Assembly: GCA_904378095.1 (NCBI GenBank)
Contig: CAJFHE010000004.1
Span: 3,588 to 67,587 of the forward strand
Reading direction: 5' to 3'
From: an uncultured Clostridia bacterium
GTDB lineage: Bacteria > Bacillota > Clostridia > TANB77 > CAG-508
Length of the DNA stretch: 64,000 bases
In this document: positions 4,501 to 62,286 of the stretch, one piece after another
Layout of the letters: the number at the start of each line of letters is the position of its first letter
Position numbering within the stretch: position 1 is the stretch's first letter
Program-made: the position numbers and the translations under genes
Notes under the pieces: model-generated
The model's database searches: none
What the model was told of the DNA's origin: nothing
What the model saw: the letters and a program-made list of their open reading frames with translations, nothing else

Positions 4501-5237
4501 TACGTGGAAGAGTCGGAAGAAGTGACAAGCAAGCCTATGCATATATTACATACAAAAGAGATAAGCTATTATCAGAAGTTGCAGACAAAAGATTAAAAGC
4601 AATACGTGAATTTACCGAATTCGGATCAGGCTTTAAAATAGCAATGAGAGACTTGGAGATAAGAGGAGCAGGAAGCTTGCTAGGAGAAATTCAACATGGA
4701 CATATGGAGCAAGTAGGGTATGACACTTACTGCAACTTACTAGACCAAGTGGTAAAAGAAATGCAAGGAATGGAAGTAGAAGAAGAGCAAGAAATTCAAA
4801 TAGACATCAATATTTCAAGCTATATACCAGATAGCTATATAGAAAACAGTAGCCAAAAAATTGAAGTATATCAAAATATAGCACTATGTAGAACAGAAGA
4901 AGATATACAAAATGTAATTGATGAAATTATAGATAGATATGGTGTAATGCCAAAAGAGTTAGAAAATCTAATAGAAATAGCACGTATTAAGGAATTATGT
5001 AGAAATGCTGGAGTAATTAAAATATCAGAAAAGAAAAACGTATTTAATGACACGAAAAATGTGGTATTCTATTATGATAAAAATAAATATAATCCAGAAA
5101 ATGTGGATATACTAATCAAAAAATATGGATATGACATAAAATTCTCAGCAGGAGTAGAGCCATATGTTACTTTAAGAGTAGGTAACCTAAACGATGAAGA
5201 GCTCATAGAAAAGATAAAGGAATTTTTGTCGTTATAG
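1563..5237 (+). CDS. mfd: transcription-repair coupling factor Mfd. Alternative start is the ATG at 1575. Carries an in-frame copy of repeat family A at 3040-3095
   Basis: 1224 aa; helicase motifs GDVGYGKTEVA and DEEHRFG; UvrB-like N-terminus and TRG C-terminus. Confidence 0.9.
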   Translation: MVSVMKNMLINELEANDKFKQLIDEIEMKKTPIFISGLEFVGKSHMISTVSDTVKKPICIVTYNELQAKQLVKDLKYFQEKVEYFGKREIATYDYISESKDLPYARIEVLNKILNKDVDIVVTTIEAIMQPMISKKVLYRNVLTFTVGNLFECSGFKGKKALNNLKQILLLMGYERNDLVENKGQFSIRGGIVDIGLSEKTGVRIEFWGDDVDSIRYFSISSQRTTEMTEKVKIFPAHEYIFDYDYEDEVLPEYSEIVGSICKKIRETNSDGKTNKLLEAFERNNDASGFAKTVEADIEAIQNGEYLSKIDKYFNEFYSKKSSFLEYLPSNCLLFVDENLKINQRIENIVIENNNLIKSLMEKERFVPEAIRNISDFNKEAWNGIFEERQTVYLEENNSNSVNKFEFNYRQINFHKAETELLINDIKKWLSENKQVVILAGNKENVEKVKNLLSENEILTTDAEKNSKNELYSNGKSEQPNMAKNPETNFLNKACPQNDKVVVFRPVPITTGGLSSGFECYDLNLVVISMAEALEGEVKKRRTSSTFRQGEKVVFADLKQGDYVVHRTQGIGQFVGVNTIEADGVTKDYIKIKYKNDDMLYVPTSSLDNVRKYIGGGDTAPRLNRLGSKEWSNTKSRVKNNLREVAKDLIELYAKRQKMKGFAFSKDTDWQRQFEDEFPYQETDDQLRCIEEVKKDMEQSRPMDRLLCGDVGYGKTEVAIRAAFKAVMDHKQVAYLVPTTVLANQQYESFKKRMEGFAITVELLNRFRTKKEQDEVVKKLKLGEVDVVIGTHRLLSKDVEFRDLGLLIIDEEHRFGVKDKEKIKKLKTSVDVLTMTATPIPRTLHMSILGIRDMSVIYEPPQNRRPVQTYVLEYDAEVIKEAITKELERGGQVFYLYNKVENIEKKAMDIAELVPEAKVEYAHGKMSGREIEDIMERFINGDVNVLVCTTILESGIDIPNANTIIVENADRLGLAQLYQIRGRVGRSDKQAYAYITYKRDKLLSEVADKRLKAIREFTEFGSGFKIAMRDLEIRGAGSLLGEIQHGHMEQVGYDTYCNLLDQVVKEMQGMEVEEEQEIQIDINISSYIPDSYIENSSQKIEVYQNIALCRTEEDIQNVIDEIIDRYGVMPKELENLIEIARIKELCRNAGVIKISEKKNVFNDTKNVVFYYDKNKYNPENVDILIKKYGYDIKFSAGVEPYVTLRVGNLNDEELIEKIKEFLSL
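3040..3095 (+). repeat. Repeat family A copy 1, forward orientation, inside the mfd coding frame
   Basis: AGGCCTGTCCCCAAAACGACAA-AG-TTGTCGTTTTT-AGGCCTGTCCCTATAACGACA; translated in frame as ACPQNDKVVVFRPVPITTGG. Confidence 0.85.
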
Positions 5238-5282
5238 GGACAGACCTAAAAACGACAAAGTTGTCGTTTTGGGGACAGACCT
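5227..5282 (+). repeat. Repeat family A copy 2, reverse orientation; encodes the last codons and stop of mfd and sits before the trmH-like RBS
   Basis: TTGTCGTTATAGGGACAGACCTAAAAACGACAAAGTTGTCGTTTTGGGGACAGACCT. Confidence 0.85.
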
Positions 5283-5297
5283 AAAAGAGGAGGAGCA

Positions 5298-6092
5298 ATG
5301 CAAGTAATTTCAAGCAAAGATAATGAAATTGTTAAAAACATTAGAAAATTAAAAGAGAAGAAGTATAGAGATTTAGAAAATGCATATATAATAGAAGGCA
5401 TAAAGCTGGTAAAAGAAGCAATTGCAGAAAATGCCAAAATAAGGCAAATTGTTATGTGTGAGGATTTTAACGATACTGTAGAATTGGATAAGGATACTTT
5501 ATATGAGATAGCAAGACACAATTTAGTTGCAGTTACAAAAAATGTGTTTAATGCGATTACAGATGTAAAAACTCCACAAGGTATTATTGCAGTAATCGAA
5601 AAGAATGGAGCGAGCGAAAACGAAGCGGACTATTCTCAAGACATAATAATAGCTTTAGATGATATACAAGACCCAGGAAATTTGGGCACTATACTTAGAA
5701 CTGTAGATAGTGCTAATTTAAAGCAAATAATACTTTCTAAAAATAGCGCAGACCCATATAACCCAAAAGTAGTGCGCTCTACCATGGGAGCAATTTTTAG
5801 AGTAAATATTATAGAAACAGAGAATTTACAACAAGAGCTAAGTAAAGCACAGAAAAATGAATTTAAAGTAATGGTTACTTCTCTTGACACAAAAAATAGT
5901 GTATATGATGTGGACTATAATAAAAAAGTAATTGTTATAGGGAATGAAGCAAATGGGGTTTCAAAAGAAATACAAGATATGGCAGATGAGAAGGTAAAAA
6001 TACCAATGCTTGGAAGGACAGAAAGCTTGAATGCTTCTGTTGCAGCAGGAATTATGATTTATGAGTATGTGAGAAGAAAAGTTGCACAGTAG
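5298..6092 (+). CDS. TrmH/SpoU-family RNA 2'-O-methyltransferase (RlmB-like)
   Basis: 264 aa; SpoU methylase motifs (GNLGTILRT, IGNEANGVS). Confidence 0.8.
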   Translation: MQVISSKDNEIVKNIRKLKEKKYRDLENAYIIEGIKLVKEAIAENAKIRQIVMCEDFNDTVELDKDTLYEIARHNLVAVTKNVFNAITDVKTPQGIIAVIEKNGASENEADYSQDIIIALDDIQDPGNLGTILRTVDSANLKQIILSKNSADPYNPKVVRSTMGAIFRVNIIETENLQQELSKAQKNEFKVMVTSLDTKNSVYDVDYNKKVIVIGNEANGVSKEIQDMADEKVKIPMLGRTESLNASVAAGIMIYEYVRRKVAQ

Positions 6093-6101
6093 GAGGCAAA
6101 T

Positions 6102-6539
6102 ATGAAATTAGTAGTACAAAGAGTAAAAAATGCAAAAGTAGACGTAGACGGAAAAACAGTAGGAAAAATAGAAAAAGGATTCTTAGTGCTTTTGGGGGTA
6201 ACCCATACAGATACTAAAGAAACAGCTGATTACTTAGTAAAAAAGCTATGTAGTTTGCGCGTGTTTGAAGATGAAAACGGAAAAATGAATTTAAGCCTAA
6301 AAGATGTGGATGGAAAATTACTTATTGTATCACAATTCACACTTTATGCAGATTGCTCAGACGGAAATAGACCATCATTTGTCAATGCTGCAAAACCAGA
6401 ATTTGCAAATGAGTTATATGAATATTTTTGCGATAAGTGCAAGGGAAATGGCATAGAAGTAGAAAAGGGAATATTTGGCGCAGACATGAAGGTTAGTCTT
6501 TTAAATGACGGACCAGTAACTATAATACTAGAAAAATAA
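6102..6539 (+). CDS. dtd: D-aminoacyl-tRNA deacylase
   Basis: 145 aa; MKLVVQRV start and SQFTLYADC motif typical of Dtd. Confidence 0.9.
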
Positions 6540-60811: not shown

Positions 60812-60888
60812 ATTTTAAGACTCTAAATTGCTTGATTTTGTTTTGCTTTTCTGATAATATATTAAAAAAGTGAGAAGCGGAGGAAAAA

Positions 60889-61458
60889 ATGAGTAGAAAA
60901 ATTTGGAAAGCTGGAACATTTATTTATCCACTTCCAGCGGTGATGGTGTCTTGTGGCACTATGGAAAAATCTAATATTATGACTGTGGCTTGGACGGGAA
61001 TAATTAATACAAATCCAGCTATGTGCTATATTTCAGTGAGACCGGAGAGATATTCATATAATTTAATAAAGGAGCAAGGAGAATTTGTAATTAATCTAAC
61101 AAATGAAAAACTTGCATTTGCAACCGATTGGTGCGGTGTAAAAACTGGTGCAAAGGTAGATAAATTTAAAAAAATGCATCTTACTAAAGAGAAGGCTGAG
61201 TTTGTCAAATGTCCTATAATAAAGGAAAGTCCTGTAGCAATAGAATGTAAAGTAAAAGAAATAAGAAAGCTTGGCAGCCACCATATGTTTGTGGCAGAGG
61301 TTTTATCAATAGATGCTGACGACAAGTATATAGATGAAAAAGGGGCATTCGATATTTCTAAATGTAATTTGATTGCATATTCAAATGGTCATTATTATAG
61401 CCTGGGCAGGAAAATAGGACGATTTGGATTTTCTGTGCAAAAGAAGAAGAAAAGGTAG
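60889..61458 (+). CDS. flavin reductase-like FMN-binding protein
   Basis: 189 aa; flavin reductase domain pattern (TVAWTG...). Confidence 0.7.
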   Translation: MSRKIWKAGTFIYPLPAVMVSCGTMEKSNIMTVAWTGIINTNPAMCYISVRPERYSYNLIKEQGEFVINLTNEKLAFATDWCGVKTGAKVDKFKKMHLTKEKAEFVKCPIIKESPVAIECKVKEIRKLGSHHMFVAEVLSIDADDKYIDEKGAFDISKCNLIAYSNGHYYSLGRKIGRFGFSVQKKKKR

Positions 61459-61545
61459 GTATAATTTCTTAAAATAAATATCTAGCCAAATAAATTAAGA
61501 TATGTTATACTTAAATTATTAATAAAATCAAAGGAGGAATGTAAA

Positions 61546-62238
61546 ATGAAAAAAAGTAACATTATAATTTTTTTCTTAATTATAATAGCCATTGCAGCAA
61601 TTTTTGGCTTTGCTATATGGGATGCTAATCAATCCTTAAATAATGTGGATGGAGCAAATTCTGAGCAAGCACAAAATGTAGAAGACAATGCAGGAAATAC
61701 TTTAGAGCAAAATATTATTAGCAATGAAGTTCAAGTGAATGAAACAAATACTGTGGGAGAAACTAATACGATTGATACAAATGTAAATACAACAGTTAAT
61801 TCAACAAATTATTTGGGAGAATGGTATATTAGCCAAGAGGCATATAATAATGCACAAGAGATAGATGATATTTTAGATAGAAAAGAAGATAATTTAATTA
61901 CAGATGAAGAATTTGAAAGACGAATGAGCTCAGAAATTAATACAAATATTGTAGAATTAGACGTAGAGAGTTATTCTAGAAATACTATAAGATTTGATTT
62001 TAAATTAACTAGTCCAGCCCCAACACAAAGAGAAGGTAAACTAGATAACATTGTAGTAAATTTAACAGATAATGTAGGAACATTTACTTACACAGATAAC
62101 TGGGGAACAAGTGGAAATGGAACTATTACACTTGGAGATAATAAAATAACTTTAAAACTAGAAACAACAAGTGCAGCACAAGGAGCACAATGGGGAGTAG
62201 AAGGAATTTATACTTTCTCATATAAAAGAGTAGATTAA
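61546..62238 (+). CDS. hypothetical membrane-anchored/secreted protein (230 aa)
   Basis: N-terminal TM helix; N/T-rich. Confidence 0.45.
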   Translation: MKKSNIIIFFLIIIAIAAIFGFAIWDANQSLNNVDGANSEQAQNVEDNAGNTLEQNIISNEVQVNETNTVGETNTIDTNVNTTVNSTNYLGEWYISQEAYNNAQEIDDILDRKEDNLITDEEFERRMSSEINTNIVELDVESYSRNTIRFDFKLTSPAPTQREGKLDNIVVNLTDNVGTFTYTDNWGTSGNGTITLGDNKITLKLETTSAAQGAQWGVEGIYTFSYKRVD

Positions 62239-62242
62239 CATT

Positions 62243-62286
62243 TGGCGCTTTAGGGACAGGCCTAAAAACGACAAAGTTGTCGTTTG
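62243..62286 (+). repeat. Repeat family A copy 7, truncated, reverse orientation
   Basis: GCGCTTTAGGGACAGGCCTAAAAACGACAAAGTTGTCGTTT. Confidence 0.75.

Follow-up and report, generated by a model that had tools for sequence, protein, structure and literature searches.

Family A, a repeat of 57 bp found in the window (the whole stretch of 64,000 nucleotides that was analysed), probably consists of REP-like, non-autonomous hairpin elements that are part of a REP/RAYT-type system and fit best the TIRYT/TIRtron or subclass-2.1 TnpA(REP) type. Repeats of the REP/RAYT and TIRYT type are a known kind of bacterial repeat, and Family A is a new example of this kind from an uncultured Clostridium lineage. 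The family is real and dispersed in the window. A profile search identified seven elements and no others in the 64 kb, with 0 expected by chance, a high density of approximately one copy per 9 kb. The 22-mer AGGCCTGTCCCnAnAACGACAA occurred 13 times and the hairpin AAAACGACAA-NN-TTGTCGTTTT seven times, and neither was found in any of 100 shuffles. The seven elements are:

3040-3096, + strand: full element, a truncated unit (M-H) followed by a full unit (H'-M-H*); in frame in mfd
5226-5282, - strand: full element, reverse to gene flow; the end of mfd lies inside, the SpoU-methylase gene follows
17902-17958, - strand: full element; the end of rsgA lies inside
26179-26246, palindromic variant: two full units in inverted order (REPIN-like); between the AlaRS-like ORF and the HIT gene
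32138-32194, + strand: full element; between ylmH and folD
45372-45428, - strand: full element; the end of mutS lies inside
62242-62298, - strand: partial element, hairpin and full unit (62242-62286) kept, left unit degenerate

Six of these seven copies are extragenic or overlap gene ends, while one is intragenic. The first-pass annotation had described a composite repeat of about 56 bp in seven copies; the dispersed repeat proved to be real, but the span given for it left out the copy at 3040-3096. The flanks of the window copies are unrelated and the copies therefore do not represent a segmental duplication. In related contigs, about 45 non-redundant full copies (sites) of the element were found, and the element forms arrays in contigs L019 and L026 in addition to the inverted dimer in the window.

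The basic unit of the family is a 33-nt stem-loop, H'-M-H, with an 8-bp stem formed by H' (TTGTCGTT) and H (AACGACAA) and a 17-nt loop that contains the constant motif M (AGGCCTGTCCC). In the usual 57-bp element, a unit truncated at its 5' end (M-H) precedes a full unit, so that the 10-bp hairpin reported previously is composed of H of the first unit and H' of the second. Inverted order of two units gives the palindromic copy, and units of H'-M-H alone occur in other species. This stem-loop with its conserved loop motif and the partner transposase described below were both absent from the first-pass annotation. As single-stranded DNA, the repeat folds far below shuffled sequences; the 33-nt unit is a short palindromic stem-loop of -8.0 kcal/mol (z = -6.1) and the palindromic copy at 26179-26246 reaches -26.4 kcal/mol (z = -10.5). 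The stem covaries between species. Among 35 units, all chosen beforehand to pair at 6 or more of the 8 positions, compensatory changes were found at all 8 stem pairs; 90.7% of stem cells were paired compared to 62.5% in shuffles, and the covariation score was 0.741, compared to 0.257 in shuffles and at most 0.18 with slid partners. No GT[AG]G/GTAG or CGTC tag at the hairpin foot was found at unit ends in the copies compared. Four window copies (3040, 5226, 17902 and 45372) carry GGGGACAG, which fits the TIRYT-TIR consensus GGGG[AT][CG]A[CG] (PMC3733652, PMC6006769).

In related contigs, an ORF encoding a 264-aa Y1/HUH transposase lies between two inverted copies of the repeat (L045, 775-1569; L053, 9783-10574), a REPtron arrangement with inverted flanking elements in L045, L053, L065, L067 and L069/70. 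This locus, with a GH15 gene on one side and radA on the other, is located outside the window and is tied to this genome via contigs of the same species (L045); L045 and the window share 756 bp at 99.3% identity, at a junction that could be a chimera made during assembly. In the elements on either side of the transposase gene, the corresponding sequence is GGGACAG, which has only three G (L053, L065, L067), or GGGGACGT (L069); neither is an exact fit to the 8-mer. The protein matches Pfam Y1_Tnp (E = 7.6e-13) and scores 61 bits with the NCBIfam REP-associated tyrosine transposase model, below its curated equivalog cut-off of 80 bits, versus 21 bits with IS200. H62 and H64 (the two His of HUH) are conserved among 43 homologues, as are Y121 and N125, and P126 hardly varies; Y121 and N125 belong to the Y---NP signature, as in RAYT sequences, and this signature is that of TnpA(REP) (PMC3333891, PMC6006769). 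A profile of the transposase matched only PDB 4ER8, which was also the best match of the AF2 model (pLDDT 85.8; E = 5e-7, with ISDra2 and IS608 TnpA at about 1e-4). By sequence, signature motifs and predicted fold, the transposase is nearest to E. coli RAYT. Its C-terminus, helical in the model, carries a helix-turn-helix part, detected as HTH_23 in 15 and as HTH_28 in 5 of the 43 homologues. The GH15-RAYT-radA synteny is kept in relatives at 49-97% identity, and the RAYT gene in these relatives is always flanked by the element variant of its own species. We infer that the elements were mobilised by this Y1 transposase, which would recognise the unit as folded single-stranded DNA, by sequence in the loop motif and by structure in the stem; the protein may have copied the elements, or may now maintain and homogenise them.

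Among known systems, the closest resemblance is to TIRYT/TIRtron (Di Nocera et al. 2013, PMC3733652), which has been equated with subclass 2.1 TnpA(REP)-like Y1 (Quentin et al. 2018, PMC6006769). Shared features are a long RAYT-like protein that combines HUH and Y---NP with an HTH_23/HTH_28-like C-terminal part (subclass 2.1 is delimited by HTH_23, HTH_28 or Bac_DnaA_C), inverted repeats with the GGGG[AT][CG]A[CG] consensus around the gene, here matched exactly by GGGGACAG in the four window copies, and dispersal of the flanking repeat as singles, dimers and clusters. Clostridia or Firmicutes are not mentioned in the Di Nocera paper, and the subclass-2.1 section of Quentin et al. does not name host taxa. 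While Quentin et al. did not find REP-like structures beside subclass 2.1 genes, Family A is a clear stem-loop repeat with covarying stems and a conserved motif in the loop; it also differs from TIRYT by its density and by the anchoring of one end to a Shine-Dalgarno sequence (SD) or stop. With the canonical REP/BIME/REPIN sequences and RAYT of E. coli and Pseudomonas (Nunvar 2010, PMC2817692; Ton-Hoang 2012, PMC3333891; Bertels & Rainey 2011, PMC3116915), Family A shares short extragenic palindromic units in single, direct, inverted or clustered order, a RAYT gene between inverted units, RAYT-repeat co-evolution and long vertical persistence. It differs in having no GT[AG]G or CGTC tetranucleotide, a conserved motif within the 17-nt loop, 1.6 units in direct order versus an inverted doublet, and a transposase with an extra HTH part. 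As with the Rickettsia palindromic elements (RPE), the mfd copy lies in frame within a coding gene and gives an additional peptide in a loop that tolerates it, but the sequence is unrelated, the host is different, only one of seven copies is intragenic and a partner transposase is identified. A Y1 HUH enzyme, subterminal single-stranded DNA hairpins and no target duplication are also features of IS200/IS605 and its hairpin-ended derivatives; however, the protein here groups with RAYT and not with IS200, its gene occupies a single conserved chromosomal position in every relative that was compared and no fixed target tetranucleotide was seen beside the copies.

The mfd gene carries two of the copies. 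The copy at 3040-3096 adds 19 amino acids, encoding (K)ACPQNDKVVVFRPVPITT directly before the conserved I-x-TGGLSSGFE block, at a site that the Mfd alignment shows to be a hypervariable loop; the copy is tolerated in frame in this variable loop of Mfd. The ORF (1220 aa) is intact with this element in many strain contigs, and the same in-frame element is present in L009, a species at 85% nucleotide identity. At the other end of mfd, the first 12 nt of the 5226-5282 element, read on the + strand, are the last mfd codons and the stop (TTG TCG TTA TAG, with TAG at 5235-5237), and 4 nt after the element comes GAGGAGG, the SD of the SpoU-methylase gene, which starts at 5298. This copy is present in all strain contigs, while L071 has an mfd-spoU junction without the element. 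Mfd orthologues have ...KIKEFL in common and diverge after it; those bearing an element end in SL*, SLGQEGHS* or KSVDKGDTPFCPQK*, as encoded by their own element variant.

Similarly, rsgA reads 24 nt into the 17902-17958 element (GTG TCG TTA TGG GGA CAG GCC TAA) because TGG here replaces the usual TAG. This copy is present in five strain contigs and has an orthologue in L007 (81-85% nucleotide identity). The mutS gene ends 12 nt into its element (ATG TCG TCA TAG, giving MSS*), and the gene that follows is a PRK/uridine-kinase-family ORF, a correction to the earlier annotation. The stop of the AlaRS-like ORF is at 26177-26179, its last A being the first base of the element, and the HIT gene starts at 26277; in L084/L085 this spacer has a palindrome with the same loop motif and different but complementary stems. 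The ylmH stop is at 32124 and the folD start at 32206, and the element between them has its H* end immediately next to GGAGG; L055 has an identical copy, and in L084/L085 the junction is empty, with 20 nt between the genes and a native SD. The ORF at 61546-62238 stops 3 nt before the last element, which lies between convergent genes (spoIVA on the - strand) and is identical in four strain contigs. The positions previously given at the ends of mfd, rsgA, the AlaRS-like gene, mutS and this ORF are therefore right, as is the proposal that reverse-orientation elements supply the stop and C-terminal residues of mfd, rsgA and mutS, with orthologous Mfd ends following their own variants. REP ends that provide TAG stops and intragenic copies in DNA-repair genes have been reported before (PMC3733652).

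Across about 45 independent copies, the same end of the element lies at the gene boundary, either 0-5 nt before an SD (23 of 45 copies) or, in most others, joined to a stop in the reading frame, so that a TAG belonging to the element closes the upstream gene; such a fusion in phase, with the TAG at nt 10-12 of the element, was found for about a dozen other genes in related contigs. The idea that the element creates SDs is not supported, as the repeated sequence does not include GGAGG, no reverse copy has GGAGG beside it and the spacer between element and SD varies from 0 to 5 nt; in the case of folD, the relative with the empty junction has its own SD. The element abuts SDs without supplying them. 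No shared flanking word or target duplication was found around the 45 copies. That just one end is anchored in this way lacks a mechanistic explanation and counts against the REP/RAYT-type reading. Different species have retained an element at orthologous positions, namely in mfd, at the end of rsgA and in the spacer between the AlaRS-like ORF and the HIT gene. The strain contigs did not differ in the presence or absence of copies and so gave no sign of current mobility. The copies are old and fixed in the species, and survive only where they are tolerated.

These positions could also be explained if the copies were primarily host cis-regulatory RNA or DNA signals, i.e., operon punctuation kept by selection in the form of stabilising hairpins at mRNA 5' or 3' ends, processing sites or translation modulators, with the Y1 protein domesticated or irrelevant to the present role. 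The anchoring to SDs and stops, the positions fixed among strains and conserved across species, stable RNA folds of -21 to -24 kcal/mol and the conservation of orthologous copies at or above the level of flanking coding DNA (93% versus 85% for mfd) are in favor of such signals. However, one copy lies within a coding region and many read into ORFs, no Rfam family was found at the copy positions, no copy was flagged as a terminator or promoter, and the family covaries with the transposase gene that it flanks, which a pure regulatory signal would not need. On balance this is a minority possibility as the primary explanation, and a regulatory role is compatible with REP-like elements as a secondary, exapted function.

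Two further explanations have much less in their favor. Intrinsic terminators, possibly bidirectional and sharing sequence by chance, would account for the hairpin AAAACGACAA-NN-TTGTCGTTTT between A and T runs and for the location of most copies after genes, and a terminator role had been suggested in the first-pass annotation. A consensus scan flagged none of the copies, though; the stem reaches just -8.5 kcal/mol and includes the T run, which is paired to the A run, so that a G+C-rich stem followed by a free T run is missing. One copy is inside mfd, and in forward copies the SD of the following gene comes after 0-5 nt, a distance too short for a promoter. Several copies are likewise within 0-15 nt of the next SD or start and leave no space for a promoter; terminating efficiently at such sites would shut off folD or the SpoU-methylase gene, and is unlikely. 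The 20-nt ylmH-folD spacer of the element-free relative also places these two genes in one operon. The terminator explanation is therefore improbable. A classical MITE, i.e., a deletion derivative of a DDE-transposase IS mobilised via terminal inverted repeats, is more improbable still. The elements are small, dispersed and AT-rich, and the palindromic copy has 22-nt inverted ends, but the terminal 22-mers of standard copies are direct, target-site duplications are missing around the 45 copies, about 0.7 Mb of related DNA contained no IS bounded by such ends and the only gene flanked is the Y1 HUH transposase.

Recognition of Family A as REP-like elements has consequences for annotation, as the true C-terminal ends of Mfd, RsgA and MutS are set by the repeats, which also explain the 19-residue insert in Mfd. 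The repeats probably interrupt the assembly of metagenomes as well; most contigs that carry the transposase gene are about 1 kb long. No report of REP-type repeats in such a Gram-positive gut lineage was found in the literature searched, and with Family A the HTH-bearing RAYT/TIRYT class would gain a clear structured DNA partner in this lineage. The natural covariation separates the loop, as the sequence determinant, from the stem, as the structural determinant, making a recognition experiment easy to design. A more speculative and rather doubtful proposal is that the HTH-bearing RAYT class has a structured type of partner of its own, a stem-loop recognised through a constant loop motif (AGRNYTGTCCC) with stems free to vary, and that the system is domesticated as gene-boundary punctuation in this Clostridium lineage, with one defined end placed or kept directly at SDs and stop codons. 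If so, the elements would determine protein C-termini, decouple genes that overlap and influence how mRNA is processed or translated.

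A profile built on the five best copies of the element, a REP-like repeat of about 57 bp, found exactly seven elements in the window.

Copies of the element in the window (profile search)
3040-3096, + strand, within mfd
5226-5282, - strand
17902-17958, - strand
26179-26246, palindromic
32138-32194, + strand
45372-45428, - strand
62242-62298, - strand, left part degenerate

The 22-mer AGGCCTGTCCCnAnAACGACAA has 13 matches in the window and the hairpin AAAACGACAA-NN-TTGTCGTTTT has seven; neither occurred in 100 dinucleotide-preserving shuffles. The repeat described in the first-pass annotation is therefore real, but the span given there omitted the copy at 3040-3096. 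The sequences flanking the seven copies are unrelated to each other, so the copies are dispersed repeats, and a segmental duplication, which had been raised as the observation that would speak against the element, is ruled out. Genes near the copies that were confirmed by Pfam are rsgA, the AlaRS-like ORF, ylmH, folD, mutS, a SpoU methylase gene, HIT and rpe. At gathering thresholds, Rfam placed no family at any copy position; elsewhere in the window it identified one tmRNA gene (55526-55890, -) and three tRNA genes (55348-55420, -; 27530-27603, +; 27628-27699, +). Relative to one leading strand, two window copies are forward, four are reverse and one is palindromic, which gives no replication-strand bias of the kind known for IS200/IS605. 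The + strand itself carries a strong purine excess to about 47 kb (GC skew 0.2-0.3 and AT skew about 0.2; 1-47000 compared with 48000-64000), which fades where the genes turn to the - strand. The window also holds sporulation genes, spoIVA (62358-63839) and a GerA-family gene, indicating that the source organism is a spore-former.

The element is composed of a 33-nt stem-loop unit, H'-M-H, in which the arms H' and H enclose a constant loop motif M. The 57-bp form consists of M-H followed by H'-M-H* (the asterisk marking the terminal H), and the hairpin originally described at its centre is the H/H' junction between units. The palindromic copy in the window represents two inverted units, and longer direct arrays of units were found on two related contigs (L019 and L026). 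Across element variants the loop motif is retained while the stem is altered on both arms, as in the following examples.

Stem variants (two arms, source)
TTGTCGTT/AACGACAA, source species
TTGTCAC/GTGACAA, related contig L069
GTGGACAAA/TTTGTCCAC, related contig L072

Among 35 distinct units, which had been chosen beforehand to have six or more of their eight stem positions paired, double-sided changes were found at 8 of the 8 pairs, 90.7% of stem cells were paired (62.5% in shuffles), and the covariation score was 0.741, as compared to 0.257 in shuffles and at most 0.18 with slid partners. The same pattern is seen at one orthologous site, the AlaRS-HIT spacer, where the window and the related contigs L084/L085 each contain a palindrome. 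These palindromes share GGGACAGG.CT...AG.CCTGTCCC cores; their outer arms differ, yet stay complementary. The AlaRS-like ORF next to this spacer (24425-26179) encodes 584 aa, with the catalytic core and tRNA_SAD and without the C-terminal domain, and is equally long in the related species (L084/L085, 4083-5837), so it was not truncated by the repeat. The central two-base hairpin loop reads either AG or its reverse complement CT (e.g., 3062-3063 and 5259-5260). This flip, which is seen even among orthologous mfd copies (window and contig L009, 1583-1639) as though the hairpin had been inverted, suggests hairpin-mediated template switching in DNA. In a second unit family, which has the loop AGGAGTGTCCC, the stems are of several kinds, each perfectly complementary. 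This family occurs mainly as inverted doublets with a looser tie to gene ends; none lies within the window.

Units of the AGGAGTGTCCC family on related contigs (strand-local coordinates)
L003 6731 (-); L026 7040 (-); L032 10020, 1654 (-)
L051 1912, 12867 (-); L059 1878; L061 5007
L062 4204 (-); L072 166, 13707

Of 185,579 species representatives, only three, MAGs with the title 'uncultured Clostridium sp.', contain the exact central junction, which was also found in 48 metagenome contigs; a scan of viral contigs gave 0 matches. Once redundancy was removed, about 45 full copies remained. These form two classes, in both of which the identical end (...CCCTATAACGACAA) contacts a gene. In 23 copies this end lies 0-5 nt upstream of a GGAGG-like Shine-Dalgarno (SD) sequence, with the start codon usually 11-17 nt past the element. 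In most of the remaining copies an ORF on the opposite strand enters the ...CCCTATAACGACAA end, in a single phase only. ORFs that enter the element end at its TAG (nt 10-12; 13 listed cases), or, for rsgA and its orthologue, at its TAA (nt 22-24); in five cases a native stop contacts the element end within -3 to +1 nt. The opposite end lies 6-180 nt from neighbouring genes and shows only a loose TTAAGA/TTAATA tendency, and neither a target-site word nor a target duplication was found at either end of the approximately 45 copies.

The mfd ORF (1563/1575-5237) runs uninterrupted through the element at 3040-3096, the 57 nt of which translate to (K)ACPQNDKVVVFRPVPITT and add 19 residues to Mfd. 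On many metagenome contigs from this species, gene callers find mfd intact, with a product of 1220 aa. In an alignment of 120 Mfd orthologues, the insert occupies a hypervariable, indel-rich loop directly before a conserved I-x-TGGLSSGFECYDL block; the RNA-polymerase-interacting domain follows about 45 residues later, and alignment to E. coli Mfd picks up again immediately after the insert. The linker upstream of the element (2950-3040) is of low complexity and cannot be aligned even among close species. In L009, from a species at 85% nucleotide identity, the element occupies the identical in-frame position, and more distant orthologues carry peptides translated from their own element variants or just a remnant RPVP/VP; in one distant species, the composite inside the gene shows 83% complementarity over 89 nt with a copy that lies between genes on the same contig. 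At the C-terminus, ...KIKEFL is common to all orthologues and the tails diverge thereafter. Proteins whose genes meet the element end in SL, SLGQEGHS or KSVDKGDTPFCPQK before the stop, each encoded by its own element variant, and the others in K, A or KTRFEEES. The earlier proposal that the element supplies stop codons and C-terminal residues is thus supported. In a relative lacking the element (L071, 13545-13570), the end of mfd and the beginning of the SpoU-methylase gene share 26 nt; in the window, mfd stops at the TAG of the element, 60 nt ahead of the SpoU-methylase start, so the element uncouples both ORFs.

The proposal that the element creates SD sequences is not supported: GGAGG lies outside the repeat, given that it is absent at the reverse copies and that the spacer is variable. 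In a relative with 86% FolD identity, the ylmH-folD junction is empty, only 20 nt long, and has its own SD, which also shows that ylmH and folD form one operon. Function of the internal hairpin as a terminator, the other suggestion, is unlikely: the RNA hairpin reaches just -8.5 kcal/mol with its T run paired with the A run, no copy was flagged in a consensus terminator scan, and the copies lie so near the next SD that the gene after them would be silenced if termination were efficient. A promoter reading (TTGTCG-16 nt-TATAAC within the element, with a start just upstream of the SD) was rejected as well; the conserved T is missing from the end of the second hexamer, and the scan flagged none of the copies.

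A candidate partner for the element was found on the related contigs L045 and L053, where a 264-aa ORF lies between two inverted copies. The protein matches Pfam Y1_Tnp (E = 7.6e-13) and scores 61 bits with the NCBIfam REP-associated tyrosine transposase (RAYT) model, for which the equivalog cut-off is 80 bits, and far lower, 21 bits, with IS200. The HUH histidine pair (H62, H64), Y121 and N125 are conserved among 43 homologues; the Y---NP signature, here Y121 and N125, distinguishes TnpA(REP) from IS200/IS605 transposases (PMC3333891; PMC6006769). A single-sequence search of the PDB gave nothing useful, and profile and fold searches were required. The sole match of the family profile was 4ER8, the E. 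coli RAYT-REP complex, which was also the best match (E = 5e-7) of the AlphaFold model (pLDDT 85.8), with the ISDra2 and IS608 transposases about a hundred-fold weaker. The protein has an additional C-terminal part, about 125 residues long, which is helical and in many homologues matches HTH_23 or HTH_28. The gene is absent from the window. In relatives, whose proteins are 49-97% identical, the neighbourhood (ftsK, beta-CASP RNase, GH15, RAYT, radA, disA) is kept and the gene is always bracketed by the element variant of the species concerned; GH15 takes its stop from the upstream copy, and the radA SD directly adjoins the downstream one. In L045 the gene instead adjoins folD, with a breakpoint within the repeat (L045 700-760; window 32163-32194); as four relatives show GH15-RAYT-radA, this junction probably arose by chimeric assembly or by rearrangement at the repeat. 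Most RAYT homologues lie on short contigs, about 1 kb long, suggesting that assemblies break at the repeats.

The same copies were present in every strain contig examined, no insertion polymorphism was seen among strains at five sites, and several sites are common to species 15-20% apart in nucleotide sequence. The sole strain variant, in a 97%-identical mfd allele (L011, 11376-11500), is an in-frame deletion of 81 bp (27 codons) that removes most of the element and leaves CTATAACGACAG only. What precedes the ABC/SufBD-GH18-greA-mfd block varies among strains of the species (contigs L013, L015, L016 and L011; 10 kb upstream of mfd), and no element other than the mfd copies was detected at these loci. 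From the REPtron-like arrangement and the co-evolution, we infer that the Y1 protein would mobilise the elements.

TAG stops supplied by REP ends (GTAG and CGTC REPs), REPs within replication and repair genes (uvrA, uvrB) and TIR repeat families tied to TIRYT genes have been described (PMC3733652), and the element fits this known kind. Group 1 RAYTs have been noted in Clostridia, with only modest counts of flanking repeats (PMC5581495). The transposase agrees with the published description of subclass 2.1 of Quentin et al. 2018, which these authors equate with the TIRYTs described by Di Nocera et al. 2013 and for which flanking inverted repeats share GGGG[AT][CG]A[CG] (PMC3733652; PMC6006769) and no REP-like sequence was found alongside the genes (PMC6006769). 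Compared with this consensus, four window copies have GGGGACAG on their reverse strand, and copies beside the transposase gene mostly have GGGACAG, one G fewer. No paper joining REPIN, RAYT and Firmicutes was found. New features are the host lineage, the stem-loop with a conserved motif in its loop, the direct 1.6-unit form and the one-sided anchoring to SD or stop, which could mean that only copies so placed survive in a compact genome, that insertion is targeted, or that a role at the RNA level is under selection.
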